A stretch of 64,000 nucleotides of DNA from the NCBI GenBank assembly GCA_010093605.1, contig MU004181.1, positions 186,001 through 250,000 of the forward strand, read 5' to 3'. The notes under the pieces are model-generated. The model saw nothing but the letters and a program-made list of their open reading frames with translations. It searched no databases and was not told the DNA's origin. Origin of the DNA: Lophium mytilinum. Taxonomy: Eukaryota. The translations under genes were made by a program, and so were the position numbers. Below are positions 6,250 to 60,862 of this stretch, piece by piece. Positions within the stretch are counted from its first letter, which is position 1; every line of letters begins with the position of its first letter.

Positions 6250-6700
6250 CTCAAAGCTCGACTCTTCCAGTGACCGTGTCGCTAGCGCCATCGAAAACAT
6301 CATGCTCACCCTCCATGTCTAGTCGATTGATGGCGGTATTGGTGGAACCGACATGGTGCTTATCTATCAGGTCGCACTCGCTGTTCTTGTAGAATGTCGC
6401 ACATCCATCAGCCCACTTTGCTTCTTTTTCTGCCATCGTCCTCGCTCTCGACTTGGGCCAGAAAACTCCAATGTAGTCGGTATGCGCCAGTGAGGAGTAA
6501 AGACAGATGTCGTAAGATCCTAGGTCAAATTCCTGGAGACACACGATATCGGCATTCCGTTCTCGGAGTTCTGCTAGAGTGACTTCTTCCGGTGATCCGA
6601 GGATAGTGCGCGTGAAGGCGTGTACCTAGATTGGGCCTACGTAGCGTGCTTGTTACCGGGCGTATCGTTGCTTGTTACCGGGCGTATCGTAAGTTAGAGC
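6250..6700 (-). pseudogene. CCR4: CCR4 deadenylase (EEP domain) fragment 1
   Basis: Translates to YTPSRAL..CLQE..GVFWPKSRARTMAEKEAKWADGCATFYKNS..NTAINRLDMEGEHDVF, matching the fungal Ccr4 nuclease domain. Has frameshifts, stops and a 22-bp tandem duplication (6647-6690). Confidence 0.85.
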
Positions 6701-7469
6701 CGTGAACGTTTCTTGGCCAGCCCTTGGGCTTCCTTGTCCGAGTGAGAGCCGGTAGGTTCTGGGGCGGACAAGTTGCTCGGCCATGACATTGTCGTGACCG
6801 CTTGGCTTCATATCCCACTAGGTACGGCAGAAATTGCGTAAGGGGCGTTGGTGGCGTTGATGAAGTCTGCATTTCCGAGAGAGGCTCGAGGAAGCGAATG
6901 ATTCTCCAAAGGTCGTCGTGTCCCCTCGGTGAGGCGCAGTAGTATCCAGCAGTGAAGAGGGCCAGTGCCCAGAATGTGAAAAGCACGAGTGTCCGGCACG
7001 TGAGGAGAAAAGAGAGGCTGTCGTCCGTCTCGGTCGCGTGCATATACGGCACTGGCTTAGAGGCATCTAAGAACCTCAGCAGATTAGAACGTGCCGTGGA
7101 AGAGCGGAGTGGGTGACTTGCCGTACGCGGTTCATGTTGACCTCTGCTTCTCGCCGAAGTTTTCCTCGTCTTCGCCGGTAGTGTTTTCGCGACGTTCTTG
7201 TTGCGACCGTAGAATCTGACCACATTTCTGCCGCGGAAGAAGGGCTTGAGGTAATTAGCAGCACTTCGACGTGAAGTAGACGTTGTAGATAGGTTGGAGG
7301 GCGGATGATGTTTCGGGTCGGTCGGCGGCACAACGGGGTTGACACTTGTTCTCACCCAGGTTTGTATCACGAGACCTCACTGAGCGGAACGCTATCTTCT
7401 CTGACATTTGCTATCTACTTCAGATCGATAACCCCTCAAACTCCTCCTTGATTGCTTTGATGCGAGTCC

Positions 7470-8090
7470 ACTTCTCCATGATAGGGTAGACTGGACAGTA
7501 CTTGGAGACTAGACGGATGGTGTTCTCGCTAATAAAAGTTAGCTCTGGATGCTGTGACATGTCACTCTATTAGAACGTGACTTACCTAGTGGTCAGGACT
7601 AAGATGGCACCAGCATTCTGCTCCAGGCTGGCACTGACAGCAGCCATAGCGCAGGTCTCGGTAGTAGGAGCAGGCACAGGGACGACCTCCTCAGCTCAGG
7701 AAAGGGAGATATCCACTTCGGCGGGCAAACAGGTCTTGTGCACCATGGTGACATCCTCGGCCCGCGAACCAACTGTGTATTCCCACCACACGTTTGAGAT
7801 TCCATCAATCCCACCCCAGATAAACTCCACAATCATCCCAGGTAATTGCCCTTGGTGGCCTCGCCTGACAGTATAGCGCAGTCGGTCTGCACCGTTCAAC
7901 ATGACGATTCCTGCCTCGCTCTCTTCAGCACGGGTGGGGCGGGGCTTGTAAGTTATACTCTTCAGGATCTCAGTGGCGCAGATAGCGGGCTTGCCGGCGA
8001 TGTTGCACTTAGTAATCATCCTCTTCTGTGCGATTAAGATCTGGCTTGGAGGAATGTCGATACCGAGATCACCACAGGCGATCATGACGC
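7470..8090 (-). pseudogene. PYK1: Pyruvate kinase fragment (C-terminal half) with retained intron 7529-7585
   Basis: [36 protein letters not shown]; then TETCAMAAVSASLEQNAGAILVLTT | GTAAGT..GCTAAC..TAG | ENTIRLVSKYCPV. Interrupted by stops and unrelated sequence. Confidence 0.9.
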
Positions 8091-8629
8091 CAAACGAAAC
8101 CAGAGTGTCCGCAGTGTCGTTTGCCTTCGTCCTCAACACGTCGGGCTACTTATCGTTGAGGTACCACAGGCCGATGAAACTGTTCACACTGACGTGAGTC
8201 AAGTTGAACGGAGGTGCATCCGGGTGAGTCTCGAAGTCCTTCACATGTTCGTGGACGGCCCTCACTACATGTCAGCAGTAGTACCTAGATCCGGTTTCTA
8301 TCGCCTCACTTTTGATTCTCGAAGTCGCACTGGCACTTGGGTAGGTGGAAAAGAGTTTCGGTGGCTTCGAGCGACTCTTTGACCTTCGCCTTGTCTGGCA
8401 CGTTGACATCGAGGGAGAAGAAGTCAAGGAAACGGACCACAAGCGCTGGCTTCCTGGGAATGTTGGGTTGGGACATGTCGTTAGGCTTCTGTTTGGATAA
8501 ACGATGATAGTAGGATGTGCGCATGCAAAAACGGCAGCTTGGGCGGAGCCTTGGCAGTGTTGAGACGGCCAGCGAAGAGATCGTCTTGCAAAGCATCGGC
8601 AGTAAGATAAGCGTTCGCAAAGCCAGCAG

Positions 8630-36567: not shown

Positions 36568-38749
36568 TGTGGGTGTTTCGGAGAGAGACTGCTGAAGGAG
36601 AAATCGACAGGGGCTCTGGTGGTTGGGGATGACTGTGGTGTGGGGGATGCCGACGGTCGATGTAGAGAATGTGGGGCCCGAGAGAGGGGGGTCTTATATA
36701 CCCCAGGGTGGAAATGATGGTTTAGTGAAAGAGCAACACATGTGACAGATATGGAGACGTGAATGATATGTGACTTACACTTCCTCCGCCTCAACTTGAC
36801 GAGATGGGGGTCATTCACAGCCCCAACGTCGAGGTGAATGCACCTGTCCCAACATTGTTCATCCATAACATCCCCTCTTTGTAACTCAATGATTATCTCG
36901 GCTACTAGCGTGGCTATCGCGAGACCTTCAATCTTTCTAATGCGAGTCCTGCCCTTGTACTCGCTGATCTGCCTTCTCGCGTCTTTCCAGATTTTCAGAC
37001 CCTGATCATCGAGCTCCTCATGGGCCACATCCAGCCTCACATCAAGCATGACCGCTGCCGCCGCTTTCCAAGGGAAATTGACTGCATAGACTTTCGCTCC
37101 TCGCGATTTTCAACATTGTTTGCAGAAGCCTCTCCGCCTTCGCATTCCAGCGCCGGTTCGACACCACCTACGTCTTATCCGCCTGCTTTGCTAACCTTGA
37201 TATGCTGGTCGAGCAACTCCATGCCAGCTCGCATTGCGACACTGGGAAGGCCGCACCGATAGCCTGTCAAGGCTGTGGCAGCGAACCGAAGCTTCCTGGG
37301 TGATGCTCGATACCCAAGATCATGAGCGGATCGTTGGGGTAGAGGTTCATTGTAACCAACGTCCTGAGTTCCTTCCAAAGAGACACGTCCTGGTTGGGCA
37401 ATGCATCTTCATTCCCTTGTTGAATGCGCGCGCTCCTACCCCTGCGTCAGAGCGCTGGTGTTTGTGCGACATACATTGCTCCTGACAGTTGTTGTCACCA
37501 CGATACTAGGCTCCCATGCGGTGGGGTTGGCGGTACATATCCCGCTATTGACCAACGCCCCGTTTACACAGCTCTCGACTTGAATTTGGACGGTATCGAT
37601 ACCGAACGTGGCTCCCCTGGGACGATCTCTGATTCTTGTATATACTTACGTTTTGGGGAGACGAATACTAAGCTCCGCAACGCAGACGGTGCCTCGCGTG
37701 GACCAAGGCTGGTACTGGGAGCGGTTGCTAGAAAGGTGGTTGGAAACATGAAGGAGGCTCGGGGAGAGGGAAGCACGGGAGAGGCACGTGAAAGTCGTGT
37801 ATGAGGCGAATCCTGAACAGATCTGTGAGTATCATGAGACGTTAGTTGCCGGATCTTTTAGGTAGAGAGGAGTACTTGCCTGTCTCCAGCAACCCAAAAA
37901 ATGAAAAAAAAGAGGCTCCCTCCACCGCCGGACAGCCAGTGGCGCTATTCCACGATGGCAGCATCACCCGTAGACCATAAAAGACGGCTGAGAAGGATGA
38001 GCTCATGCTATTGGAGAATAGTGCCCTGGCGTGGAGTTTATGTGAGCGACGACCCGAAGATGATGCTGAAGACCACAATGCCAGCGATGGTGGCAAGTAT
38101 GATAGTGGCTCTCGGCTTCGGATAATACTCGCAAGTCTGGCGGGATATCTGCTGGGGCTTCCCCGTTGTCAATGCTGGTAGGTCGACTCCAGCTTCTTCG
38201 CATTCGCGTGGAGTTCTTCTGCAAGCGGCTAGATAAGGCTTCGATATTGTCAGTAGGTCGGTCTTGTATCTACGATTGGAATGAGGTTGTTGGTAGAGGA
38301 GGGGAGGACGCCGACGTGTGGCGAGTTGCGGAAGCGGTTCGAGGTAGATTTTGGAACGCGGAGGAGCATGTGGGGAGGCTATCTTTGAGGAAGTTAGAAG
38401 AGCAAGGAAAGTCTTTGCAGATAGAAGACTAGGTGCTGCAGCAGGCGCGAGTTGGGGGTGTGAGGGGATGATATCGGCCTGAGTTCTTGGGGTCTCTTTG
38501 GAGAATGTTTACGCTGCTGCGAGTCAGCTGTGTCCTTGGAGGGGAATAAGGCAAGTCATACTGTCATTTCACAGTCAAGTCTGAAGTAGCCAGTGTTTCT
38601 TGGAGCTTCAGGCGTCAGGCCTCAGGCATTCGATGAGAAGTACAGTGCGATACGTGAACTTGAACTTTGTATATGATTACTCGGTATTCCGTCTTCCGCA
38701 ATAACCCACTGCTGCATCCATCTCCCAGAGAAAACATGCATACCTACCT

Positions 38750-39480
38750 TAGCGTCTGCCGACACAAAGCCACGAGCCCGCTGCGACCCCCGCCTCCTCT
38801 TCCTCCCTTGTCAGCCGCCTCCTTCCTCGCCTTGTTCTTCGGTCTCGGTTGGTCGTCGACGAGCAGCGTATCGAGTGGGAGACTATCGGGTAGGATGAAG
38901 TGCCGGACTCGTCTTCGAAGATCTGCAAAGCCGAGCACATCTAGAGCGACATCAGTGAGACGAATTGAGTAGAGGCATACAAGAATAAGTACCGTTGGAA
39001 GGCGTAGCCCGCACCACCATCTCCTCCATCCCACCCCACGCGATGGCCATCGGCGGAAGATGCAGTATGTCCAACTGTGAAAAGGTGTCCAGTTCGCCAA
39101 GATCCTGCAGCGAGTTGGGAGTCGGGGAGTAGAAGTCCAGACCGGGAAGGCGTAGAGACTTCTTGTGGTGGCTCCCGATGCGACACAGATGGTGGACATC
39201 GATGTCTTCCTCCGTATAAGGAACATGGATATCGAGTTCCTCTAAGTATTTGCATCCCTGAACCAAGTTCTCATAGTTGTCCATGCCGGCAAAGAAGCCC
39301 TTTAAGCTGAGGGTGATGATTTCGGAGGACGACTGCGGAACATTGCAGGCCGTGTTGTCACATTCTTTCAGACTGAACAAGCCGAAGCCAGCAAAGTGGC
39401 GGAGGCACGGGCTTGACGCCCTGAAGAACGTTAGTAATGCTTCGACGTGTTGAGGTGCGCACATGAGCACTCACCATGTC
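38750..39480 (-). pseudogene. Degenerate LRR-like C-terminal part of an F-box-type protein
   Basis: [44 protein letters not shown] shows the LxxLxL periodicity of fungal F-box/RNI-like proteins. Frameshifted near 38960. Confidence 0.4.
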
Positions 39481-39649: not shown

Positions 39650-40085
39650 ATCTCAGGCCGCGGTGGAGGTGAGTTGAAATCGCCGCACATGATCAGCGGG
39701 ACTTGAGAACCACTGGAATATTCCATCGATGGGGCGGGCTCTTGGGGGGTTTCTTCTGGATCATCTTCGCCGTCTTCGTTGGTGAACCTGTATAACACCT
39801 TGTCTGTGCACGCCGGCCATTTCGCATACTTTTCAGCGAGCTTCGTGATTTGCTCCATAAGAATTGCAACCTGGACTACTTTGACGTTTACGAAAACTTC
39901 GTTCCAGAAAATGTGTGCGTTACTGAAGATCGAACGTGGTTCCAGTCGCGCGGTTTTCCAGGAATATTATGACGGCGATGTCATCTCGAGGCATTACCCG
40001 GTTGAAAACGTCATGCTCACGCTTCATGTCTGGTCAGTTGATGGCAGTATTGGCGAAATCAACAAGACGATCAAACGTGCTCCAG
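39650..40085 (-). pseudogene. CCR4: CCR4 fragment 2
   Basis: VDFANTAIN..EHDVFNRVMPRDDIA..NAHIFWN..VKVVQVAILMEQITKLAEKYAKWPACTDK..YSSGSQVPLIMCGDFNS, with frameshifts. Overlaps the end of fragment 1 at 6.3 kb. Confidence 0.9.
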
Positions 40086-40149
40086 TCGCGCTGTCTTCCC
40101 GAGTTAGCCTTCGCTCTTCCACTGTGCATCATCAAGAATGAACGTACCT

Positions 40150-40340
40150 TTCCTCGGCACACCAATGGCGCGCTTCTGGTCGATGACGGCGATGCCTTTA
40201 GCGCCGACTTCAGCCATGGCCTGGGCCATGTTAAAGCCGAGTCCGCGAGCCTCACTGGTTTTCTGTCAGTGGAAACTCAACAAGTGAAGAGCGTGGAAGA
40301 CTACTCACCCAGTGACCACGACGATCTTGTCGACGAGGTG
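40150..40340 (-). pseudogene. Short-chain dehydrogenase (sugar-alcohol DH-like) N-terminal fragment with retained intron 40255-40308
   Basis: DKIVVVTG | GTGAGT..CTGAC..CAG | EARGLGFNMAQAMAEVGAKGIAVID, the TGxxxGLG Rossmann motif. Confidence 0.8.
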
Positions 40341-40344
40341 AGGG

Positions 40345-40680
40345 TCGAATCCCCTTGTGCCAGCAGCAGTGTCGATGAACTTAATGTAAACGTCTCCTGG
40401 GCTTGACACCGGATCGACGCCGACATGCGCCACGTCGCCGTACATCTCTCTGCACTCCTCTCCGATTTCGTCGATAAGCTCGCGCTTCCAGTTCGGTCCC
40501 TCTCTATCAGCTTGTTAGCGTCTGTGTCAAATAACTAACAGGTATACCTACTTCTCAAGCTCAGTCTGGTTGTACATCTCCTTGATCACGAGGCATTGGC
40601 TCGCCATTGGAGCTGGGACCCGAGTGGCCGGTCGACAGTTGACTTGTGGTGGCTTGCGTTCGTTATTGGCGGGCTGGGGA
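40345..40680 (-). pseudogene. RBM39-like C-terminal UHM/RRM3 fragment with retained intron 40504-40551
   Basis: PMASQCLVIKEMYNQTELE | GTAGGT..GCTAAC..TAG | EGPNWKRELIDEIGEECREMYGDVAHVGVDP..DVYIKF. Confidence 0.75.
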
Positions 40681-41649
40681 TCATCGGCCCCCGCAAAAGA
40701 AACAAACTTTGACGCGCATACCTGGGAGGGAAAAGCTATACGAAGTCAGTGAGGATGAGGTGAGGATGAGGTGAAGACGTACTGAGGAAGGAGTGATGTA
40801 GGAGAGACGGAGGTTGGAGGGGCGGAGCTGGCTTTTGTAGTGTGCGGCCAGCTCGCTTACGTGAAGTCCCGTGAGGCCCACTTTACTCGGCAAGGCGCTT
40901 TGCCGAGCTCTAGGCCGCTCGCGCCGGTAGCGATAAGGGCTCGGCATGGGTTCTAGCCGTTGTGCGGTCAGTATGGTGTGGCTACAGTTTTCCTGGCCTT
41001 TTGGTGAGCATTTCTTATCATCGCCATCTAGTCGTATAGAGCGAGCATGAAGCATTCGGTATGCAAAAGCCATGTCATTCTCCAGGCCTTGGTAAGGTCT
41101 GGCCTTTCGATGTTATTGTATCTAGTTCCTCCTAGCTTTTAACGTCTAGAGAGTTATAGATGCTGGATAAGTTCTCGTCTAACAGCAACTCCTACTCAAA
41201 CTAGTATATAGTGGGGTGTTCGGCGAGGCAGATCGCACCGATAAACTAGATGTTGGCTGCTTGAGCATTCCAGAGAACGTAGTGCTTTGCTCCTTCTGCA
41301 GAGATTTTCACAGTAGCGGCAAACTTCAAGCTCATTTTTCCGGTACATTGTGTGTTTTAACTAGAAGAGCATGTTGGTTCCTAGTTTGAGAAAGCTAAAT
41401 ACTTGATCTATCTACCCTCTCCGAGCAGAACATGACTGACATGCTGTCCCGCTTGTGCATTTTCGCTGGAAGACAACTCGGAGCAATTCCGCCGTGACAT
41501 CAAGGAAAACGGGACAAAGACAGCTTGACGGAGAGAGATGCAGTCAACTCTACACCCACCACTAGCTAAACTCCCGGGCGTGGTCCCAACCTGTGGTCTG
41601 CATCCACGGGAGCATCAACTACTAACTCCCTCGTCCGAGCACACGTCCC

Positions 41650-41950
41650 GCACCGCTCCATCAACTTCACCCAGGCTCAACACTCTACTCGCGCTCCATC
41701 ACCCTCTAATCGAAGACAAGCTCAGAGGGTAGATACTGCTCGAAGTCATCTAGGCAAAGAACGGAAGATTCGGCGCCGCAGCACTGCGGGTGGTACTTGG
41801 ATGCGTCGGTAAGTGCAAGACGGAACACTTGCTCGAGACACGCGCCGCACATCGAGTGCTCGCCGCAACCAGTCTCCCGGAGAGGCGTGTCTTCTACCTT
41901 GTCTGTCCTGGCGACTCCGCACGCAACCCCGGACCGATCCATCATGCTGG
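41650..41950 (-). pseudogene. RBR/IBR-type E3 ligase RING1 fragment
   Basis: xxCG..GCGEHSMCGACLEQVFRLALTDASKYHPQCC, the pattern of fungal IBR-finger RING1 (C.H..C..CL...F..A..D...PP.CC). Truncated by TAG stops. Confidence 0.65.
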
Positions 41951-43404
41951 AGGCAGTGTGTTGCTGAGTTCTTCACTGTGGTGAAGACATGGTGGTGGAA
42001 CGATAAGGTTAATGGCAGTCGGGGTGGTACCGGTTATGTCCTTCACCTCACCCGCTTTCAGCATTCCGTGTTCTGGGGAGGGTGGCTGTGCGGAGTGAGT
42101 TGCGGTTTCGGGCCTTGGGTGAGGAACTCGAAAGACTGGTGAGGATCTCCCTTGCACATTCGTCGAAGTTCTGCTTGCTGAACTGAGGCTTCTCCTCCAT
42201 ACGTCGTTCAAGTTCGTCCTTGTTCCGCACAGACTTTGTGGCGTGCGTGCGACTCCCGATGAGCTTCCTCCGACGTGCAATCCGACTCTTCATCTTTGCA
42301 GAATCTCCGCTCTGGATCGAAGAGCCCCATCGCGCTCTTGAATGTCTGCCTTGTCAGCTACGGGCTGGCTTTAATACACCAAGGAGATGGGCAGAACCGT
42401 ACCTTCTTGATGTTGAACTAGGAGCCCTTCTTCTGCAGAGAGGGTCATGGCTCCAATTCCGACCTGGTGGCGCGTTTCAGAGGACCGAGGTGGCAGGCTG
42501 TTGCTGAGCCGGCGTCTGTTGAAAGCCATTCATATCGAGGTACCACCTTTTCTGGAATGCGTTCTTCTAGGCTCCGCGCTTCTCGATCTCACAGCTTTGA
42601 CTAAACCGCATTGTCCGCCTGTAGCTCTGCTGCAGGGGCTTGGAATAGTTGAGCCGAATGGCGCCCCATGGCATAGTGTTCAAGCCAATGAGGACCCCTC
42701 CACCACTCATTCCCTGGCCCAAACAACGGCAGCCATCCTCATCAACTCCATTTTGTTGAGCCTGGACTCCACGATCCGGAGCGTGCTCTCTTGAGCCCGT
42801 GAATTGCATTTACCAAAGCGGTAAAAGACCAGTGAGGAGGGGAAGTTACGGAGATTCCTCAGACGGCGGCGCGCAACCGCAGTAGCTTGATTTCGCCACT
42901 TTGAGAAACGTCTTGGGTATGACCGCCAGTGGAGCTGCTGCAGACTGGGACTGAGTTAGCATCTAATATCACACAACCTTGAAGAGGTGAATGTACCTTC
43001 GTCGGCCCTCGCCGCCTCCTTGCCTGCGGCCCGCCTCGAGGATGTTCGTGGCTTGGAGATCCGTGGCCTCCGTACCTTTGACCCTCTTCCAATTCGGTCG
43101 CGCTGAGCTTTGTTATTGGCGATGACCATAGGAACGTCTTGAATCACGGTCTTTTACCATCTGAGCCGCCCACCTCACTCAGCCAACTTTGCTGAAGACA
43201 CCAAGAGGTGTCCAGTCCCAAGGTGAGCAGCTAGCACTAGATGGCACTCGTACGACCATCGCGCATGTCTTCGATCAGCTCGAGCTTCCGTGTCACGTCG
43301 CTCGGGGCTCTCGTCTCAGTTTCCACGTCAGCCATCGCGTCCTCCACCGTCAAACCACAACCGACGGAATTGTCGCGATGATGACGACCATCTCCATTAT
43401 ACTC

Positions 43405-43900
43405 ACACCAGCCTCAGAGAGTACCGAATAGAGAAGCTTCTCCTTCAGCGCACTCTCGTCCTTGCAGATGGGAAGTTTCAACAGGTTCTCGCAGGTGCTA
43501 GTGCTCGGCAGCCTCTCCTTGTCGCCGCCCGCGTCTCGAATACTGAGCGGTGGGTGGAGCGTGCCGAATCCTAGCAGAGGTGATCGTGGGGTTGGAGTGA
43601 CGAGTTTCAGCACAGCGCGTCGTTCCCCGTCGTTGAACTGCTCCATGACACGGCAGAAAAGATCAATGGTTGGGTGGCCGAGACTATCATCGCCGCGCTG
43701 GTGGACGCCTCTACCACCCACTATGGGGTTGATAGTGGCGACCTGGGGACATCGTGCGTTCCTGGTCCAGGTCAGTGCTGCGAAAACGAAAACTGCCGAT
43801 TTTGATACCTTCGAAGCTTGTGTAGTCAGAACTCCGATATCCATGACCCTACTATCTATGCCTGATGCTCGATTCTCCGCCGTCCAGCTCCGTTGTCATC
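43405..43900 (-). pseudogene. HECT E3 ligase (Hul5/UBE3C-like) C-terminal fragment
   Basis: HPTIDLFCRVMEQFNDGERRAVLKLVTPTPRSPLLGFGTL..SIRDAGGDKERLPSTSTCENLLKLP..LKEKLLYSV..AG, a HECT C-lobe including the catalytic Cys motif. Confidence 0.9.
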
Positions 43901-43959
43901 TCTATGTTCCGGCTTTGAAGACGTCGCAGGTGCGAAAGCGTGGCGGAGGAGGAAGCTGG

Positions 43960-44110
43960 GTCGCGAGCGCGCCGATGTCTTGCTCGAGAATACTGGCCAC
44001 GATGATGCCCGTCTTTGCTCTGGTCGCTTCTGAGAGCGTTGGTCATCGCGAAATCTTCAACCTTTTTCTTGATCTTCGTGCGGCTACGATCGCGACGATG
44101 GTCTCTGGAG
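43960..44110 (-). pseudogene. Second copy of the RBM39-like N-terminal RS/RD fragment
   Basis: RDHRRDRSRTKIKKKVEDFAMTNALRSDQS aligns to RDHRRNRSRTRIQKEDDDVEIMDAPDSDRS at 9180-9260; the DNA similarity is visible by eye. Confidence 0.65.
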
Positions 44111-46029
44111 GAAAAGAGCGGCCTCCAAGTCTTTGGACGTCCGAGTTGTAATTTGTAGAGGAGGTTTCAGAGAGAGGTAGGAGGGTGGAGGTGGTGGGAA
44201 TTCGAGAATGTGGAGAGAAGGATACCGAGGTGCAGAGCGGAAGAACTAAAGTTGAGGACGAAGGTGGGGAGGGCCTCGGTTAGGTCCAGATTGGTGCTCT
44301 GCCGGGGATATCGACCGAGACGGTAGAGTCTTCATCAAGTTAGGCATCGACGCTTTCTGATCTTTAATGGAGGATGATTCCACTGGAGGACGCAAGCTGG
44401 GATTTTGGGGTTCTTGGTGCGGCAGACGCTATCACTGTAACTACTCATTTAGGGATTCAAACGGTCGAACGAGCAATCTCTATCATAATCAAGCTCCAAA
44501 TTTAAGCTGGGGAGTTCACATAGTCAGAGAAAAGAATTAAGAAACTCTCTCCGTACATATTCGTAAGGTCTACATTCCACCATCCCATGCCTCCCACAAT
44601 CGGCCAAGCTGCTTCCAACTTCCCTCATGCCTGTACCGAAAAGCATTCCGGTCAAGTTGCCTTTGGCGCCCGAAAAGTCTGCTTTGCGAAAGACCACTCC
44701 CACTCCCGTGCCGGCACATACCAACCAAAACATTGATACATCAGTCCCTCCGATACCCTACCAACTTCTGAAATATCGCGTGCTTCGTCTATCTTTCGAA
44801 GATGACGTAGATGAATTAATGCCGGCGTCTCTTTCTATTTCAGCCAGCTGCTATTTGCGCTGTTCTCATAGTCACAGGCTCGGCTGGCCCTGTGGTCACA
44901 AATGGGAGTCAAATAGATTGCGGCACCAAGAGTGCTAGAGTCGGCTAGGCTGTGCCCAATCTCTTGCATGCCGGCACTAAGAGGCGTTCCAGTCAAGTTG
45001 CATTCGGGACCCCGAACGGTCAGTTTCGCGGAAGAACTATCGCGCTCTTGTGCAAGTGTGCTCATAGTCGCAGGTTCGGCGCGAGCTGACGAGAACGACC
45101 TGCTATCCCCGTAGTGGCTCGATGAGGGAAGACCTTGACCGCTACGTGTGATCTCGTCGTTTGGCCCAGCATCAAGCATCTCCGTCTCAGTCAACTTGCG
45201 TTGCGCGCCACCGCTCCCGGTTTCTGATTTCGTCGCGACGCGTCCCCATTCGTGCTGGTGGGCCAGAGACCTCACCTCGTCGCTGAGTTCGCCTGACTTC
45301 GGAGTGGGGTTGAGATCGAGCTCGTCCCGCGCAAACGATTCATGAGTATCCTGTGATCTTTCGGTGTTCATGGTAGGTAGAGAAGACTCGAATGGCGTTC
45401 TTGCTCATCCATTGTGCTCGGACGTCTGTATGACTCTGAAAGATCCCTGGGCAATACCTTCAACAAGACACCTCACTTGTCTTTCCGTGTCGGTCAGATT
45501 CCGCGGTCCAAGTGAAAAAAAACTTTTGTACCACGTGAAACCGAGAACAGGATCGAAAGGACTCTCATGCTCTTCTATTAGGCTTGCCTGCCGCGACGAC
45601 TTCGACTTCTCCTGTGCTCCAAGGTATCCCGGGAAGCTCACCCTCCGTGCCTGCCAACGTACTGCTTCATGAGGTCTTCGAAAGTCTTGCTCGTCTTGTC
45701 TACCTCGGTGTCGCTCTTTCTGGAGTCTTCAAGATTGCCGGAGAGAACGATAAAGATGTCGCGGGCCTTGGATCGTAGAGCCTGAAAATCACAGTTGGTA
45801 ATCAAAGCAGGTCGGACGTCAGCGAGCTTTTCCAGGGCCAGTAGTGGTGGGGGCGGGACGGCCTAGTCAGTCGGTAACTTCATCACGAAAGTTTTCGCGT
45901 CCTCATACTTTAGGATAACTCATCATCGTATTGCTCTATATCATCGGCATGTAGCTGTTCTGCAACGACGTGGTCTAGCACTATCTTTCTTGCACTTCAT
46001 CGAGACTTCCACGTTCGGCCATGGTAGCG

Positions 46030-47430
46030 GATGCAATAGCCTCGCCACCCGGTCCCGTCGTCTCTAGAGAATTCCGCTGTCCTTTGCTTCAAGACAAACC
46101 CAACACGTTGTTCCTCCAGATCATCGGCACCCAGGTCTCCTACGACGACGTGGTCCACTGCCATCTTCATTCGGCCCATCTGGACCATCTTTTCTTCGGC
46201 ACTGGCACGGAGCACAAAGTCGAAGCCCATGTTCTTCTCGATCTGGCTGCGGTCAAGAAGCTTGTCGATGGCGGCGTCGTCGTCGTGCTTCAGGACAGGC
46301 CCCACATCGCGTTCTCCCATATCATCGGCATCCAGCTGTCGGCGTATCCCAGCGCCTCATGAGTATCCGTGCTCTTTAGCCCCTTTATCTCCCGAATCTC
46401 TGCAGCCGAGTAGTTGACTAGCGCGCGACCAACCTCTTTAGGCGCCGGACTGTGTTGCTCCCACGTTACCGTTGCTGCTGCGAATGAGTGGTGGGCGAGG
46501 GGTGCAGGGACGAAGTAGAAGTAGGCGTAGAGGTTTTCTATGACGACGTGGTCCAGCGCCATCTTCCGCTTTGGCGCTCGCACGGATCCTAAACCGAGAG
46601 CCCATGGTATTCTCAATCTGGCTGCGGTCAAGAAGCTTGTCGATGGCGGCGTCGTCGCAGCGAATGGCGTGGTCGGTGCCGTCATCCTTGAAAAGCTCTG
46701 CATTCCCGTGCTTCAATGCGACAAACTCGACCAGGCGACTCCCCATATCATCGGCATCTAGCTGTTCTGCGATGATGCAATCCAGGGCTAAGGTCTTTGA
46801 ACCATTTTTTCTTCGGCGCTGGCACAGATCATGAACTGGAAGCAGAGCCTTCTGCTGTCCGATACCGTGAGCTCAAGACCTGACATTGATATCCTGAGGT
46901 GGGTTGACGTCTGGGCGGAGGATGATGACGGTGTCTGCGCTGGCAAGGTTGATACCTACTCCGCCAGCCGGTGTCAGTTCGAGCTATATAAGGAGCCGCG
47001 GGAAGAACTCCTTGCTGGTGGCATTGAGGAATAACGGCCTGAGGGCAGTTGCGCCCGCTCCTGTCGGGACTCGCGCTGTGAGCCTAGGACGCGTTGTTGC
47101 TGCAAGCCCGAAGCTTTCTCGCAGTAGTCTACACGAACAAACTCCTGGTGGCCGCAATTGCCGTGGAAAAATGGCTATAGTAGCACATACTGATGCAAAT
47201 GCCCGCTCGAGTGCACAATAGGAAGGCGAAGAGCGGCGAACCTGGTCCATTCAACTTATCGATGCGCATTTCCTTTCTCGAAAGACCGAATACTTCCATC
47301 AAGTCGTTCGTACTGCATCCCATAGCCGTCGAGGAAGTCTTCCATAATATCGAGCATGTCGAGAAACTAGCTGAAGACGGGTACCCTATGCCCTCGTTCC
47401 TTCACTTGGCCTATGCCCTCGTTCCTTCAC
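46030..47430 (-). pseudogene. Mit1/Mi-2 (CHD-type SNF2) chromatin remodeller helicase-C fragments, scrambled and partly duplicated
   Basis: ERGHRVPVFSxFLDMLDIMEDFLDG..YERLDGS; RIDKLNGPGSPLFAFLLCTRAG; GGVGINLASADTVII; RASAEEKMVQMGRMKMAVDHVV; DDAAIDKLLDRSQIE present twice (about 46230-46290 and 46605-46665). Confidence 0.88.
46340..46480 (-). pseudogene. PRO1: Glutamate 5-kinase C-terminal PUA-domain fragment lying between CHD pieces
   Basis: KEVGRALVNYSAAEIREIKGLKSTDTHEALGYADS matches the G5K PUA consensus GRALVNYSSxEIxRIKG..S..I...LGYADS. Confidence 0.75.
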
Positions 47431-47664
47431 TTGGCAGCAGTAGATTTAGGAGCTGGAGTTTCGCGGATGCTTCCACTAGGTCGCGGCAAGAGACGGTAGC
47501 AATATCTCCCGTACTGTCGTTCCGAGCCTAACACCAAACGAAGCAAGCAACATTGTAGTGCTTAACGGCGGTGACAGAAGGGTCAATTCAAAAATCGTCG
47601 TTGGCCAGGCGGATGAGGTCCCGGTCCAGTTCTTCCTCGAGATTCTGGTGCCAGTCAGTGGTTT

Positions 47665-48285
47665 CGGTCAGCATGCCGCCTGTCCCAAGTGCTGAACCAG
47701 CGCTAGAGACGTCCGCTTTGAGATCTTCAATATTCTCTACGACTTCTATGGCGTGGCCATCTGGGTTTGATCGGGGGTTCTTGTCGTAGAGGCAGTCAAC
47801 GTCCGTCATCAAGACTAGGTAGTCAGCGTGGACCATGCCGGCGGTGATGGCAGAAAGAGTGTCGTTGTCGCCAAACTTGAGCTCCGTGACGGCGAGAGTA
47901 GCAATGCGCTAAACTTGATATCCGTGACGGCGAGAGGATCCTTGTCGCCACACTTGATCTCCGTGACGGCGAGAGTATCATTCTCGTTGACGATTGGGAT
48001 AACGTTCAATCCAAATAGCGCGGCGAACGTCGCCTGGGCATTCTGGTACTGAGTGCGGTCTGCGATGTCGTTGCGGGTCAACAGAATCTGAGCTACTGGT
48101 TGGTCCCGTTCGTTGAATAGTCTGTCCCATTGACTCATGAGCCGACATTGGCCAATCGCTGCGATCGCTTGAACTTTGGGGAGGTATTTTGGTCTACGAT
48201 CCAGGTTCATTCGTCGTAGGCCGGTCCCAATGGCGCCGGAGGAGACAAGTACGACTTTACGGCCATCGCGCTGCAGTCCAGACGC
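47665..48285 (-). pseudogene. PRO1: Glutamate 5-kinase N-terminal fragment
   Basis: [95 protein letters not shown]. The segment [11 protein letters not shown] is triplicated (about 47860-47985). Confidence 0.92.
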
Positions 48286-48459
48286 ACCCAAGCGTCTCTG
48301 GGTTTGGGCCAGAGTCGGCCCAAACTTTTGGTGGCACTCTAAACTTGTGGGTCGTCCAACCCTAGGGTGAACAGCCTATAGCTCTCGCGAGCTTTGCTAG
48401 GCGTCACGGTTCGGGGGGACACTCCACAGGGCTCTCGTGCTCTTCCACTGGGCGTCGGT

Positions 48460-48790
48460 GCGAGCGTGGCGGCGAAGGGACCATCCAGGCCATCTCGAAG
48501 TCGCGGTCGATGATTGCGCACTCCATCGGCTTGATGCCGACAGGATCCGCATTGATACCAAGGACAGAAGCACCCTCGCACGGAGCAGGATACACACGAC
48601 CGGTAAACTCAGAAAATTTATTCGTCATGAGAAGGCGGTTCAGCGCGTCCTTCCACTGGTCCTGGAAGCCGAGCTCGTTCCACTTCGGGATGATGTTGCT
48701 GATAGGACATGCAAAGTCAGACTGGCAGAAGGGTACACCGTAGTCTGAAACTTGACTTCATCCTCGTGGAGGCGCGTTGAAAGCTCGGTC
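48460..48790 (-). pseudogene. GLT1: NADH-glutamate synthase (GltD-like part) fragment
   Basis: [83 protein letters not shown]. Confidence 0.9.
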
Positions 48791-49294
48791 CAGTCTCAAG
48801 TTTCGGGATGCGACACTTCTCTGTGCGCCGCTGGTACTTTCACGATCAGGATCTTCGCTCCCAGCTTCTTGACGGGAGTGGACGAGGCTCCAGACATCTT
48901 GAGCGTTGACTTGCGATAGAACGAAACAGGAAGACAGGAGGAATTTATACGCATCGGAATCCCAGTGCGTAGGCGCCTGCGTCCTTGACCATCTGCTGGA
49001 GCTTGCGCTCAAAGCTGGACGTCGTCTCGATTGTTACCATACTGGAGAACATCTGGCTAATGACCGCAGCATCTGGCACATTCCTATATCGCAGTCATTT
49101 GTATTGACTTCGCTCACGTTTCCAGGATCCAGGGACGGGAGCCGTCGGGGTCATATCATCAAGGGATTGTCCATATTGGGCCTGGGTAGTTAGGAGCTCT
49201 TGGTCGACAGCGCCGGGTTCTCTGGAGATCTCGTCGTCGAAGTCGAAATCGAGGTCGAGATCGTCATCCGGATCAACAGCAGCATTGGACAAGT

Positions 49295-49450
49295 TCGTCG
49301 TAGAATCTGCTGCTGGAAGGTCATGATCTCCTCGAATGAACGCCGGCCTGTCCTCCAGTAGACTAACAGGAAGCCCTCGCCGGTACGCATGTAGTGCTCC
49401 CGTATGGTCGAGCACTCCTCCTGGCGCCAGCAGCATTCGTAGTCAGAGAG
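49295..49450 (-). pseudogene. RAS1: Ras GTPase fragment (switch II to helix 3)
   Basis: [42 protein letters not shown] versus fungal Ras [42 protein letters not shown]. Confidence 0.9.
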
Positions 49451-49929
49451 GACCGTGGTCTAAGAGCCATCTAGGCAAGAGGAAAAGAAAAAGGAACCCA
49501 GGATTCCATGTTTGATGCCGATAAAATGAGACATCGCCGCTGGAGCATGAATGAAGCAGCACGGGATGAGACGACGCACAGCATCTTCTGATGACAACAA
49601 GCTATTTTCCCCCGCCTTGAAGGCCACAGCCGAGTCAACGCGCTCGCGCTCGCGATCAGATTCTTCGCCGACCTTGGAGAGTGGCATGACCAGCGTCGGG
49701 ATCCCCGGTAGAGGCAGAGGCAGCCTGCCTATCCATCGCGTCCACACCGTCGGATATTTGTTGCCCCAACCGGTTTCATGCAAGCGCTGCATACGATGCC
49801 GGATTTCCCATCGCAAGGAAGATTTGCAAGAGCGCAGCTCGTACATGAAGAGTACATATACTGAGGGTCATCTAGCGAGAACGTTTGGCGGAAGGAGCGT
49901 CGGGATACGCGGCATGTTTCAGATCAACC

Positions 49930-50220
49930 AGAGTAGGACTGCTTCTCCCATTTTACGAGGTACTGCTTGTCGTCTTCGTTTACGGTAGCGCATGGGGAGT
50001 CTGGGTAATACTCGTCGACATCAACCGGCCTTCAGGCAATGAGACCTGAAACAGTACAATCCTTATTGTCGTCACAATCTTTTCATCGCCCGCTCTTGAA
50101 GTGTTCATGGAACATCCTTCCGCTGTTTCTTCTTCGTCGCGCGCATTGTCCATGGTGTATGCGTGAAGCGCGGACAAATGGTGGCCATGGCGACATGATA
50201 TACAGCCGTAGTCCCTATCG
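49930..50220 (-). pseudogene. Mit1/CHD PHD-chromodomain fragment
   Basis: CISCRHGHH..YTMDNARDEEETAE.. xKDC..GLIAxRP..VNEDDKQYLVKWEKQSY; chromodomain YLVKW motif. Probably the same donor gene as the 46-47.4 kb pieces. Confidence 0.6.
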
Positions 50221-50249
50221 TCGAGCGCTGTATTTAGGGTTTTCGAGGT

Positions 50250-50385
50250 CCAGAAAACTATCCTCTCCACCGGAAGAGTCGACGAGCACATCGATCTGTC
50301 CATAGTGCTCCTTGATGTCTTTGACGGCACCAGCGATCTAGGTTTAGTCACGGATGTTGACCTGGTAGAATCGCACATCCATCCA
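50250..50385 (-). pseudogene. SDR fragment 2, a plausible continuation of the 40.2 kb piece
   Basis: DVRFYQVNIRDxxxIAGAVKDIKEHYGQIDVLVDSSG (SDR D..V..V.....G.IDVLVN.AG motif) with two TAA/TAG stops. Confidence 0.7.
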
Positions 50386-50514
50386 CACCACTCTGGGCGG
50401 AGAGCTCTTCCAGCCGCGACACCGATGCGTACGAGTCGTAAAACGCTGAATACTGGAGTCTGCGAGCTTCAACGAAGGGCGAATAAACCGGCCTTTCAGT
50501 CCACTCACGCTGGG

Positions 50515-50706
50515 GCTGTTCATGAGCGGGTGTTTGACATTGAAGTTGTCAGGGTCCTGGAATACGGTGACCGGGGCATCGTTGACGGTGTCGGCACTTC
50601 CATTGCTCTTGGAGTTATCAGAGCCGATGGTGGACTTGTCTCCATCGGGGGAGATGGGGATGGTGTCGAGCGGGACCGGCTGCTGAGCACATGCGACTTC
50701 AGCCAT
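50515..50706 (-). pseudogene. eIF4E N-terminal fragment
   Basis: MAEV..VPLDTIPISP..VTVFQDPDNFNVKHPLMN, the fungal eIF4E TVFHDPxNFNVKHPL motif; breaks off before the first conserved Trp. Confidence 0.85.
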
Positions 50707-50744
50707 GTTGAGGCTTTTCGAAAGGCGGTAAATTACTCGCTACA

Positions 50745-51010
50745 TCATCCTGCATGCTCCACGGTCGCAGCCAGGTCGGGATGGTTCGCTAGTGTGCATA
50801 CCAATTGACGTGACTGTGCAACGTTGCACTTGCGGCCAATCTGCACGACCACCTTCTTGTACAGCAATGCGCCATTCCGCTCGTGGAGCCTACGCGGAAT
50901 CGGGTTCCAAGGAGTCGAGGCGGCGTCGGGTGATGGGAAATCGGGCGCGGTGCATGGTTCCAGGGAGAGGGGCCCACAGCAGGGAATTGGCGGAAGCATG
51001 GATGACAAGA
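50745..51010 (-). pseudogene. Degenerate N-terminal part of an F-box-type protein
   Basis: RRLHERNGALLYKKV..QLVCTLANHPDLAATVEH resembles the common fungal post-F-box motif LY..V...LL.TL...P.LA..V. Confidence 0.35.
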
Positions 51011-54000
51011 AGAAGGATGAGAAAGCTAGATGGGCGGAAGTAGGATCTGTCTGGAGCCCTCCTGCATTCGGCCAGGACCGTAGTCAGGATGTCTCGCAGG
51101 TGGCCGGAAGGAGGATGGTGTCCCATGCCTAGCGGATCAATTAGGGAGACGCCAACTGGGCTCTTCAACTACGGCGGCGCTGCAGACTCGGTGCGTAGCG
51201 GAACCTGCATCCTGCGATAAACGACGGGAGAAACGGAGCGTTGTGATCTTCTTTGCCGCGGCCTTTCCGACGAGGAGGAACTTGCGCATCGTAGGAGTAA
51301 GGCGCTCAATCAAGGCCTGGTCTAGTAGCGTGACGACCTTCTTGATGTCTTCGAGCGGAGCTGCGACGGCGGCCGGCTGGCCCGAGGTCACCTTTTCGAC
51401 ACGCTTTCCATCTCCAAAGCTGACAACTGGAATTCGGTCAGCCGTGGCTGATTTTCCATCCTTGGGTTTATCACCTTCAGCCTTGCTGCCAATGTCGTTG
51501 TTGTCAGGACGTTTGGTGAAGCGCGGGATGGAGGTGCCGTAGCTCCGACTTCCTCATCAATAGGAGAGTTTGTGGCGAGATGATCGACAATGTTGAGTAG
51601 GATCTCTTCTGGAACTGCGTCTAGCGAGGCTGGAGCACGGTCTGGGTCCTAACAAGCTCGCAGAGAGGCAGTCCTGCACATGAACTGCGATGCTGTCAGT
51701 CTGCTTGATCCTGTGGACACGGGTGCTCTTTGACTTACGAGATGCAACTGGTAGTGCCCAAATCGTCGAGGGCAACCTTTTCTGGACATTTACCGAACAC
51801 TGGGTGCCAAAGAGAACAGCCAGTCTCAGAGCTCGCTTCTCTTGCGTCTCGATCTGCTGTAGCAGTGGGCAAAAGCGTGCAACAACTGGAAAAGGGTGGA
51901 AAGCGTGGTGTTGAGGTTTGAAGTGGGCAAGGCGAGGTGGGCTTCTACGAGGGTGCGAGCTGCTCGCTTAGCTAGAGCGCCTAACCTAATCGGGACGGCT
52001 AGGCTCCACTTTTGCCACTAGAAGGACCCCCTACGAGGAGTGAGAGATGAAAGCACATTTGCAGTTATCCACGCAGTGTGGGGACTACCGGAGCGGTAGT
52101 GGGAGGGTGCTTGGAGCTTTCACTTCAGGGGCGCGAAGGGTTTAGGCTTTAATAATATGGGAAAAGCTATCACTCCAAGGATTTAATCCATGAGATTAGG
52201 GGGTTATTGACGAGTTTGGGAACAGTTCGAATGGAGCTAATTGAATTTCTTGCTGTAAGGCTACACATCTCCTGGGACATACCCTCGAGTTCCTTTATAT
52301 CAGTATGATCCCCTCCTTGTAAGCCCCAGATAGATAGGGTGTAGAAAAGGCAGAAGAGCACTCGATGCTAGGGTTAGCGTGGTAGCCGTGGCTCAATCGT
52401 AAGAGCTGTAGCTTGTACACCCCAATCCATCTTAGCAGCGGCAACAATTTCCACTTAGGGTACATGAAGTAGCTATGCAGGTAAAGACATTATTTCTCCA
52501 TTCTTGGAAGAGGGTCGGTCCACGTCTTAGGTAGGCACTTCGCTTTCGTATCCCACGTAGAGACTCTCAGATTAGCCTTGAAATATACAGTTTCAACGTT
52601 TTTACGCAAACCTACGAGCTGTTAGAAGACCAGTATGACGACGGATATGACGGGGACCCTTTGGAGATAGTAGTACAAATCTGCGACTACTGGATGGCGT
52701 GGGGCGGGGCTGTGGCTAGCGAAAGAAAACTCCTGCATACCCGGAACCTATAGGCCACAGCGTCGGCACAGCGGAGCGGACTGCCGTTGGACCATGGCCT
52801 GGCCGATGTACGATGCGGTAGCCGTTGCAGCAACGCGCCGTGCTGATCTGCTCTCGGACTGCCGCCGTGAATCTTTTTAACTTCGACGAAAACGCTGCAC
52901 GGTCTTGAAGATGATTCCGTCGAGTACTCGGAGTATGGAACAAATCGAATGAATGGCGTAACAGCTCTCCATAGATGATAGTAGCCATATCGCCAGGAGC
53001 ACCGAGGCGCAGCGGATACCAGAGCTCGGAGCAACGCGTGTGACAGCGGGTTTTCCTAACGTGCTTTCAATGGAAGAAGGTTTGTTGACCTAACAGAACA
53101 CAATCTCAATCTTGCGCCCGAGTATTCATTTAGCAGCTCGGAAGTACGTCTTGTCCCTGACGCCTTCGGTCCTGATGCTGCGTCCACCATCTCCATGCTG
53201 CCGGCTGTTGAAGCTAGGGAAGATTAAGAGGTACGAGGTGCTTCTTATCGTATGTCGCCTAAAAGGTGCTGATGAATAATCTCCAATCCTTGCTTATTTA
53301 GGGCATCGAGACCCTTCCCGTTCTTCTGCGAACCGTACGAGTGCCGCCGAATCTCAGATCCATGCAAGAACCCGTGATGCCGGACAGCTGACCAACCCTT
53401 ATAGAGATTCATCTTCGTATGGATGCCTTCAAGATAGCGTTTGGATCGGAAACAGGTGTGTACTCGATTACGGGGGGCCTGGTCCACGGTTTAGCCTTCC
53501 ATGACATTCATTGGATGGGACACTCGGCGCACATTAACAAATGGCCAGAGATCTCCGCCAAGGCCTTTGCCAGAAGCATGCAGCCGGCTTCTGCGGACCC
53601 TCTCTGACGTATCTTAGTTGTATGATGTACGAACCGCGAGGCCTGCCGCGGTCTCGTTCGCAACTCCCCAGCCGTACGAATGTTGGAGACCTAGGGTTGG
53701 CCATGCCGGGATGATCAATCTTATCCAACGTTCGTGGCCTCCGTATCCGCTTGGTGGGAGCTAAGGTTTCATCCAGGCGTGGTTCGTGGTCGCGTGGTAA
53801 AAGACATGCTTTCTGAGGTAGGCGGACGGACTGATCTTGTACGCCTGTATCGGATTTATGCGCACAGGTCGCTCGCAGGGGGTCGATGAAGGCAGTCAAC
53901 AGTCTCGATAGTTTGTGATCGGCGTTCTTGGATTGGCGGTAGATGCGAAGTCGCAGGTAGGAGGAGGCGGGGTCTCTGCTTATGCTCGCGGTGGGCATTG

Positions 54001-54347
54001 GATATTTTGGAGGACTTCCCCCGGCCGCGTAGTCCTTCAAGATCATGCGAGAACTGTCTTGAAGATGCCGCCTGAATGGCTGCACTGCGGGGAGCAAGAA
54101 CAATGAGCGGGTGGTGGAGGATTGAAAGTAAGCGTTGTGATAGGGTACCCCGGGAAATGCCTCCGTCACTGGGCTACAGGAAGACTAGGAGCTGATGGGG
54201 CAAATTTACTTTTATATCACTCTTAGGAACCTGGTAGTGGATAACGCTGGGGGAACGCCGGACTTGGGAAGGTGTCAGGATCTGCCAAAAAGAAAGCCGA
54301 ACACTGCGAGGCTCGAACTTCGGCTCACTGGTCAAAAAATCGACAAA

Positions 54348-60790: not shown

Positions 60791-60862
60791 CCAGGAACCA
60801 GGAACCAGGCGGTGGCCAGGAACCAGGCGACCAGGCGACCAGGCGACCAGGCGGCCAGGCGG
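60791..60862. repeat. Array of nine CCAGG units, mostly 7-8 bp period
   Basis: CCAGGAA, CCAGGCGA and CCAGGCGG units read directly. Confidence 0.85.

Follow-up and report, generated by a model that had tools for sequence, protein, structure and literature searches.

A co-oriented patchwork of gene fragments in a gene-poor locus of the fungus Lophium mytilinum

Described gene-fragment systems and the Lophium locus

Dispersed gene duplicates and gene fragments have been described in Drosophila as collecting in kilobase-scale hubs, the 'tinkering loci' (Weisman 2026, bioRxiv 10.64898/2026.08.09.743762). Here we report a patchwork of broken gene pieces in the fungus Lophium mytilinum. It was found in a stretch of 64,000 nucleotides (assembly GCA_010093605.1, contig MU004181.1, positions 186,001 to 250,000 of the forward strand), referred to below as the window, from whose first letter all coordinates are counted. 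The patchwork lies on the minus strand at about 39.0–51.5 kb and consists of pieces of 40–600 bp from at least nine unrelated donor genes within 12.5 kb: CCR4, an SDR-like gene, RBM39, a HECT gene, a Mit1-type CHD gene, glutamate 5-kinase, glutamate synthase, Ras, and eIF4E. The tinkering loci are similar in being hubs of unrelated gene fragments, with copying at the DNA level, onward spread, and donor non-coding sequence (in our case introns and a 5' untranslated region, UTR) included in the pieces. Transposon remains lie close to the Drosophila fragments, and the window has a block of them at 13–24 kb. The account of those loci deals with animals only, the word 'fungi' being absent from its text, and describes fragments spaced over kilobases; it proposes ectopic recombination at transposon sequences as the engine, and reports no common-orientation rule but mentions antisense fragments. 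In the fungal locus, by contrast, the pieces abut, no transposon sequence lies between them, and all nine donors (9/9) have one orientation.

Besides Pack-type elements, plant Helitrons are known to gather captured gene fragments, which are commonly co-oriented. In maize, these elements capture gene fragments stepwise (Dong et al. 2011, PMC3288121), and Helitrons are also on record from fungi (PMC4289320, PMC5148889). The Lophium locus is like the plant elements in containing several intron-bearing fragments of unrelated genes per block and in their stepwise gain. It differs from Helitrons in that the open reading frames scanned across the window have no RepHel domain, that neither TC/CTRR-hairpin ends nor signs of multiple copies were seen, and that donor pieces are scattered and interleaved. 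DNA transposons have also been found to transduplicate host gene sequence, copying it at the DNA level, in Pyrenophora tritici-repentis, a Dothideomycete (Manning et al. 2013, PMC3538342). The Lophium block is single-copy and without transposon features. The Pyrenophora copies, in contrast, reportedly ride in recognisable, multi-copy transposons. Retrocopies made by template switching of the reverse transcriptase of long interspersed nuclear elements (U6-L1 chimeras) are co-oriented joins that are intronless and have a poly(A) end and target-site duplications; the joins here are alike in orientation, but introns are retained.

In human cells, the templated insertions made at breaks are drawn from transcribed loci genome-wide, and as a rule one of their ends has microhomology while the other is blunt (Min et al. 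2022, bioRxiv 10.1101/2022.09.30.509517). The pieces in Lophium resemble such insertions in being short copies of transcribed loci, with microhomology at one junction only and with the donors left intact. That work concerns experimental somatic events at one engineered acceptor site and reports neither a multi-piece germline array nor an orientation rule; its text does not contain the word 'orientation'. In a survey of the literature that was not exhaustive, we found no description of a transposon-free, co-oriented patchwork for fungi. We tentatively favour the reading that the locus is a single-copy, non-coding gene-fragment hub, built by templated insertions from transcribed genes in repeated break repair.

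Pieces, donors and orientation

An earlier note on this DNA, made from the letters alone, had described a co-oriented mosaic of about nine unrelated housekeeping genes. Pfam, tblastn, and contigs from public reads all show that mosaic to be real, and the order of pieces given in the note is correct. The interval it claimed, 39650..50706, does hold the patchwork, but the real limits are wider, at least 39034 and 51500. Every stop-to-stop open reading frame (ORF) of at least 45 aa overlapping 36–54 kb was scanned with Pfam on both strands. Gene-fragment matches were obtained in 7 of the 123 minus-strand ORFs; an eighth match (BSP_II) was rejected as low-complexity sequence of a neighbouring gene. 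The single match among 114 plus-strand ORFs, to Glyoxal_oxid_N, scored 16.7 bits where the cut-off is 37.5 and was taken as chance.

Two donors were mapped with their proteins by tblastn. The L. mytilinum glutamate 5-kinase (P0001) matched with residues 45–160, 145–223, and 415–470 at 48276–47929, 47899–47663, and 46502–46335, respectively (86–89% identity). AA_kinase matches were present at 47591–47908 (E=4e-14) and 47818–48375 (E=4e-13), together with a PUA match at 46293–46712 (E=8e-4) that does not reach the curated cut-off. The L. mytilinum Mit1 protein (P0234) matched with residues 456–547 at 50207–49933 and residues 990–1217 at 47542–46606, and with repeat units down to 45919 (E-values 5e-33 to 2.5e-37). 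PDB searches with the Mit1 ORFs gave no matches, and the pieces at 50750–51258 had no detectable match to the Mit1 N-terminus. Short Mit1-like representatives had a tblastn identity of just 37–61% and, judged by sequence, resemble the usual partial Mit1 models from other fungi. The SDR-like identity comes from a Rossmann-type motif recognised by eye and from the donor contig; there was no profile match.

Some assignments were less secure. A relaxed Pfam scan added nothing beyond weak Exo_endo_phos and RING matches. Two labels of the earlier note were not supported: the piece called 'RBM39-N' had neither a profile nor a PDB match (the ORF searched was from the left block described below), and the only match of the 'RBR' piece is the RING match in Table 1. 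The piece at 39034–39401, tentatively assigned to casein kinase II alpha, gave weak PDB matches to this protein (E=0.5–0.9) and no Pfam match. The ORF 44838–45404, which is contained in the Atlas, had no Pfam or PDB match and no Atlas lead to its identity. The annotated 'hypothetical protein' P0133 (46000–46685, minus strand) is 98–99% identical to two stretches of the window and is a gene-prediction artefact on pseudogene debris, pieced together from Mit1 repeat units with shifted frames and a portion of the inserted glutamate 5-kinase fragment. Loci of this kind bring pieces of unrelated genes together. They also mislead gene prediction, and P0133 is at least one such case here.

The patchwork is neither an assembly chimera nor a single decayed segmental duplication, both of which the earlier note had considered. 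Two public runs, which may be from the same sample as the assembly, include 97–98% of the sampled words of the stretch. Contigs were aligned at 80% likeness or more, and the individual alignments given here are among the matches listed. Contigs re-assembled with another assembler are exact across most junctions, with 0 differences over 40593–41875, 41859–46264, 47053–47711, and 50002–51500; exact contigs for 46264–47053 and 47711–50002 were not among the matches listed. Run X1 provided 110 contigs, of which 44 were at least 99% alike, 14 at 95–99%, 21 at 90–95%, and 31 below 90%; 57 of them overlapped the stretch in part only. By their sequence, the less alike, partly overlapping contigs are evidently donors elsewhere in the same genome. 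The donors are dispersed over separate contigs: those of 8.8, 15.8, and 30 kb each match their own pieces only, and glutamate 5-kinase is located on a 1.45-Mb contig, Mit1 on a 1.83-Mb contig, and the mosaic itself on a 3.87-Mb contig.

Donors and pieces are 84–95% identical, and the closest donors are those of Lophium mytilinum. Among proteins compared with the window's translations, those of this species, a Dothideomycete of the Mytilinidiales, are the most similar. The PUA piece of glutamate 5-kinase carries a stretch that is present in P0001 and absent from the Mytilinidion protein P0002, which points to the lineage's own gene as the donor; for this reason an origin of the pieces from a foreign (host or prey) genome was dropped. 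The donor genes are intact and are covered by RNA contigs of run X3, one of which shows a GT..AG splice junction. This run has the character of RNA, its depth ranging from 0 to more than 2000 and one contig skipping exactly 40504–40551; over the patchwork, short deep donor contigs spill into adjacent bins, and the contigs carry neither strand nor level.

Introns are retained in 2 of the 2 testable cases (40504–40551 and 40251–40304), which argues for copying from DNA and not from spliced mRNA. The RBM39 piece contains an intact 48-nt intron (40551->40504, GTAGGT..CTAAC..AG), the interval skipped by the donor RNA contig. The SDR-like donor DNA aligns over 40155–40297, while its RNA contig does so only from 40250, to which 17 exon letters are joined directly, a difference of 73 nt; the intron in the window is 54 nt long, with its AG at 40252–40251 on the minus strand. 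The eIF4E piece includes the 5' UTR of its donor.

The pieces have diverged from their donors to unequal degrees. Differences per site were 0.048 for the C-terminal RBM39 piece, 0.068 for CCR4, 0.082 for 39034–39401, 0.098 for glutamate 5-kinase, 0.122 and 0.163 for the two parts of the donor on the 30-kb contig, 0.147 and 0.153 for SDR pieces, and 0.151 for Mit1. This range is more than 3-fold, and the heterogeneity among pieces is significant (chi-square 38.8, 8 degrees of freedom, p=5e-6); the spread exceeds the approximately 1.7-fold expected from donor constraint alone, a bound that is our own estimate. The most diverged donors (SDR and Mit1) are split and scattered, and the least diverged ones are compact. 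Unequal divergence and the fragmentation of the most diverged donors together point to stepwise accumulation.

Repeat-induced point mutation (RIP) was dropped as the source of divergence, since substitutions run symmetrically, with C-to-T and G-to-A changes not in excess (A>G 89, G>A 89, C>T 84, T>C 88; 350 transitions in total, with 225 transversions), and the RIP indices are normal. The TpA/ApT and (CpA+TpG)/(ApC+GpT) values of the patchwork are 0.64 and 1.16, compared with the extreme values of 1.75 and 0.10 in an AT-rich block at 13000–24000. The pieces have escaped RIP although the genome has or had it.

The patchwork has been remodelled after the arrival of its pieces. The Mit1 piece ends in about 3.3 tandem units formed from its final ~240 nt, with the unit junction itself repeated, and the same piece contains a 245-nt local insertion or duplication (46975–47219; donor joint 46974|47220). 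Within this piece, otherwise about 15% diverged, a 25-nt stretch is perfectly duplicated in tandem (47385–47434), which indicates recent slippage and suggests that the locus is still unstable. In the glutamate 5-kinase piece, a unit of 38–39 nt is repeated 3.4 times (47856–47986), and over this interval the RNA contig of the donor is shorter by 77 nt. The PUA piece is inserted cleanly in the second Mit1 unit, which continues exactly across it. On the 3' side of this insertion, the letters ACAGC can be assigned to both glutamate 5-kinase and Mit1, and the 5' side carries 27 nt of filler; the signature of templated insertion (microhomology on one side, filler on the other) fits in 1 of 1 junction pairs. 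In the SDR-like donor the pieces are ordered 51500–51259, 40340–40155, and 50381–50269, so that the middle one is now 10 kb away, in the same orientation.

Fragments may also have moved on from the locus. P0169, annotated as a 147-aa 'hypothetical protein' outside the window on the same 3.87-Mb contig, consists of 66 unrelated residues followed by residues 422–502 of glutamate 5-kinase. It has two derived residues in common with the PUA piece of the window relative to P0001 and the outgroup P0002, which indicates that fragments are copied from hub to hub. On this comparison of protein sequences, P0169 appears to mark at least one further fragment-bearing locus on the same chromosome.

The earlier note had counted 11 co-oriented donors, with a probability of about 0.001. 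The co-orientation stands and the count is lower: all nine usable donors (9/9) have their sense on the minus strand (two-sided binomial p=0.004). Pyruvate kinase from the left block has the same sense as these nine, and no credible coding piece was found on the plus strand of the patchwork in the Pfam scan of the 114 ORFs at 36–54 kb. A weak and crude codon-bias test, trained on six neighbouring paralogous genes, assigned 17 of the 38 bins at 39.6–50.8 kb to the minus strand, 4 to the plus strand, and 17 to neither (17 of 21, two-sided p ~0.007). The shared orientation is statistically significant.

Origin of the patchwork

Under the favoured reading, stretches of 40–600 bp would have been copied over a long period, as DNA, from genes under active transcription at other places in the same genome and pasted into a gene-poor locus beside transposon remains. 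The likeliest route would be templated insertion in the error-prone repair of recurrent double-strand breaks, in which a broken 3' end would anneal to a donor by a few bases, copy a short stretch, be released, and be rejoined. The locus would then have been reshaped by tandem duplication and deletion, by further minor insertions, and by the placing of fragment copies at a second locus. RIP depends on the length of the duplicate, as is established in Neurospora. All pieces are of about 600 bp or less, and presumably only short copies persist; longer duplicates of essential genes would attract RIP and vanish.

The common orientation could have arisen in two ways. By polarity, the same broken end would always invade the exposed sense strand of transcribed donors; by selection, insertions giving antisense RNA to essential genes, from a locus transcribed in one direction, would have been purged. 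If the orientation rule is a matter of mechanism, the locus would be a natural read-out of transcription feeding templated insertions into the germline and would show RIP limiting duplication; if it is a matter of selection, it would point to antisense transcripts of essential genes being costly. What we infer is the break repair that drives the process, the role of RIP as a size filter, and the cause of co-orientation. A more specific version seems doubtful to us, namely that fungi possess hubs with built-in polarity: a broken 3' end would repeatedly prime on the sense strand (through R-loop-type intermediates) and yield short, unspliced, antisense-templated copies, all in a single direction, leaving a germline fossil record that is size-filtered by RIP and seeds further hubs on the same chromosome.

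Several points weigh against repeated break repair. The shared orientation of 9/9 donors is not predicted by plain break repair; nor is the co-orientation absolute, given a 37-nt plus-strand piece and a donor joint 46396/47003 marked as being on opposite strands. Part of the divergence heterogeneity could come from differing donor constraint or from gene conversion. One junction pair was scored for microhomology, with the donor nucleotides of glutamate 5-kinase inferred from protein. Finally, a very old transposon with eroded ends could have left a similar locus.

The main rival, though an unlikely one in our judgement, is a decayed non-autonomous Helitron or Pack-type DNA transposon that captured the pieces stepwise. 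It would account for co-oriented, intron-containing pieces of many genes within ~12 kb and of unequal ages, and it matches the maize Helitrons with stepwise capture (PMC3288121); the sister fragment of glutamate 5-kinase elsewhere could also reflect mobility. The hallmarks of such an element were not found in the window, however, and the earlier note's statement that there is no RepHel gene and no recognisable terminus was borne out by ORF domain scans and by inverted-repeat and Helitron-end scans of the window. RepHel, PIF1-type, transposase, and tyrosine-recombinase/Starship captain domains were not present in the ORFs scanned across the window. No Helitron end (a perfect hairpin with a stem of at least 7, followed by CTRR-T) was found on either strand of the window, a search that misses old mutated ends; shuffled sequence of 39.7 kb had a mean of 0.55 such ends. 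Bounding terminal inverted repeats were not found at 36–54 kb, where only 7 inverted pairs of 20–27 nt with 74–85% complementarity occur. The Pfam ORF scan detected no transposon domain within 36–54 kb, and a RIP-mutated retroelement block is located at 13–24 kb. At 80% likeness or more, the DNA between the pieces is present as a single copy, and the bins 40668–41501 and 44421–44837 show no depth beyond that of the locus itself. Captured blocks typically look different from this locus, where fragments of a single donor are scattered among those of others, as the SDR pieces are at 51.4, 50.3, and 40.2 kb. Break repair is favoured over a transposon by the retained introns, the unequal ages, the tandem duplications, and the insertion that has microhomology at one side and filler at the other. 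The earlier note had proposed an unrecognised capture process; its mosaic and co-orientation are borne out, but a separate capture machine stays a conjecture, and break repair with templated insertion fits better.

A single catastrophic replication event that wrote the whole patchwork at once, by switching templates serially through microhomology (chromoanasynthesis-like), would explain why many short pieces abut, why back-jumps gave tandem duplications, and why the pieces of two donors are interleaved collinearly. We consider it improbable, since divergence from the donors differs more than 3-fold between pieces (p=5e-6), the PUA piece entered an already duplicated Mit1 unit, which requires at least two steps, and the perfect 25-nt duplication is far younger than the rest. 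Orientations are, in addition, normally mixed in such events. A comparably low probability is given to a selected source of regulatory RNA, an idea akin to one in the earlier note: small RNAs or a decoy would come from a read-through transcript of many housekeeping-gene pieces, and selection would preserve their orientation to that end. The orientation bias of 9/9 donors would suit this idea, as would the gene models annotated here (P0133 and the Atlas ORF 44838–45404), which are no evidence of expression. The decay, however, is neutral-like, with in-frame stops, frameshifts, 5–16% divergence, and a symmetric spectrum; an identity of 84–95% is poor for small-RNA targeting, and no RNA run was among the runs listed as containing the locus.

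Still less credible is a chimeric cDNA, integrated after a reverse transcriptase had jumped among nuclear RNAs (pre-mRNAs and small nuclear RNAs, snRNAs). Co-orientation would then be automatic, all coding pieces being sense on one strand; that strand of the window also carries the U1-like, U4, and U6 genes, and a reverse-transcriptase remnant is present at 17736–17987. The introns were nevertheless kept in 2/2 cases although the donor RNA contigs are spliced, and the U6 gene has its own TATA box, T-run, and B-box-like element, as a DNA-encoded gene and not a retrocopy would. The 37-nt piece, which we take to be large-subunit ribosomal RNA (rRNA)-like, with no LSU match in Rfam to confirm it, is opposite in sense, and no poly(A) tracts were seen at piece ends in the sequences read. 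An assembly chimera can be practically dismissed: the re-assembled reads may be of the assembly's own sample and two intervals had no exact contig among those listed, but exact contigs of another assembler cross most junctions, including a 4406-nt contig from HECT to Mit1, and the pieces are 5–16% diverged from their donors, as mis-joined donor reads would not be.

Inventory and neighbourhood

The coordinates of the pieces and of the neighbouring features are collected in Table 1.

Table 1. Pieces of the patchwork and neighbouring features in the window.
Feature	Position	Strand	Evidence
Transcribed-donor piece, tentatively casein kinase II alpha	39034..39401	-	3201-nt RNA contig, 30/368 letters differ
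CCR4-type deadenylase nuclease	39671..40009	-	PDB CNOT6L E=1e-3; Exo_endo_phos E=0.026; RNA contig, 23/338 differ
SDR-like piece B	40155..40340	-	exon 1 end + retained intron 40304->40251 + exon 2 start
RBM39 linker and third RRM	40351..40745	-	RBM39linker E=3e-5 (ORF 40551-40745); RNA contig, 13/273 differ
Possible RING/RBR piece (weak)	41709..41972	-	zf-C3HC4 E=0.064; no PDB match
ORF with C-terminal end of HECT ubiquitin-ligase domain (~43400-43685)	43353..43895	-	HECT E=5e-21, profile 212-302/306
Arginine/serine-rich coding stretch, common to left block	44045..44105	-	80% identical to 9197-9257; loose contig ends 44066, 44105
37-nt stretch, opposite sense	44132..44168	+	loose ends of very deep contigs on either side
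Donor on 30-kb contig elsewhere	44885..45395		31/255 and 27/166 letters differ
Mit1-type CHD helicase-C region, residues 990-1217	45919..47542	-	tblastn with P0234 and P0125
Glutamate 5-kinase residues 415-470 (PUA end)	46335..46502	-	tblastn 88%, E=2e-26; sits in Mit1 repeat unit
Glutamate 5-kinase residues 45-223	47663..48276	-	tblastn 86-89%; AA_kinase matches
Glutamate synthase 4Fe-4S domain piece	48407..48757	-	Fer4_20 E=2e-8
Ras GTPase piece, profile positions 58-102	49193..49459	-	Ras E=1e-6
Mit1 PHD-like/chromo piece, residues 456-547, two in-frame stops	49933..50207	-	tblastn 70-85%, E=5e-33; Mit1-relative domain map
SDR-like piece A (follows piece B in donor)	50269..50381	-	joint 50381 -> 40155 in donor DNA and RNA contigs
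eIF4E 5' UTR and N-terminal piece	50517..50710	-	loose ends 50517, 50710 of highly expressed donor; 17-residue PDB match E=0.28
SDR-like N-terminal piece C	51259..51500	-	donor contig joins 40297 to 51259; 37/242 letters differ
Second, smaller patchwork, left block	6254..8145	-	Exo_endo_phos piece 6254-6625, E=1e-4; pyruvate kinase piece 7699-8145, E=2e-25
Paralog 1 of six	11276-12562	-	no Pfam match
Paralog 2 of six	25569-27053	-	no Pfam match
Paralog 3 of six	27218-28579	+	no Pfam match
Paralog 4 of six	30510-31829	+	no Pfam match
Paralog 5 of six	32727-33878	-	no Pfam match
Paralog 6 of six	34981-36693	-	no Pfam match

The base composition of the window is about 50–57% GC and is broken by a block of 25–28% GC at 13–24 kb. 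This AT-rich block, with its extreme RIP indices and a reverse-transcriptase remnant (RVT_1, 17736–17987, minus strand) inside it, looks like a RIP-destroyed retroelement nest as far as composition and the remnant can tell. On comparison of the left block with the patchwork, blastn gave two 61-nt matches only, and tblastx added short weak ones (22–47 bits); 40004–40064, beside the CCR4 piece, is 82% identical to 6293–6353 of the left block. A contig that jumps back from 44096 to 40355 was ruled out as representing the left block when compared with it.

Among the ORFs of at least 75 aa at 24–36 kb, 0 of 62 had a Pfam match. In the rest of the window, 3 of 111 ORFs matched (PK, Exo_endo_phos, and RVT_1), all on the minus strand, and ORFs of 40–74 aa outside the patchworks gave sub-threshold matches in 1 of 119 and 1 of 118 cases. 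The intervals 51500–64000 and 1–5700, about 18 kb of DNA with normal GC content, have no credible protein domain in ORFs of at least 40 aa, and only snRNA genes are conspicuous there, which is unusual in a compact fungal genome. This domain-less DNA may be an older, further-decayed patchwork.

Six diverged paralogs of 384–571 aa lie between the two patchworks. All have an F-box-like motif and are conserved in the C-terminal half. One of them was placed by the Atlas near DUF7730/2EXR clusters of Ascomycota.

The U1-like RNA (4161–4311, minus strand) scores 33 bits, which falls short of the gathering score; its locus shows a TATA box, and an Sm site and conserved loops are present. The usual sequence pairing with the 5' splice site is absent at its 5' end, with 0 matches in the window at 1 mismatch, and to judge from these features the RNA may be a variant or a pseudogene. 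The U6 gene (54349–54449, minus strand; 72.2 bits), with the TATA box upstream, the T-run terminal, and the B-box-like element downstream, looks functional from its sequence. U6 and U4 are on the same strand, 6 kb apart, in a stretch otherwise free of genes. The U4 gene (60542–60633, minus strand; Rfam 72.6 bits) has an Rfam match that begins at 60574, and its start is probably at 60633. It contains an apparent 56-nt intron of spliceosomal type (60620–60565, GTAAGT..CTAAC..CAG) in the region that pairs with U6. The predicted U4/U6 duplex has an energy of -33.1 kcal/mol with the intron removed and -20.5 kcal/mol unspliced, and shuffled sequences had a mean of -21.9 kcal/mol (sd 3.7).

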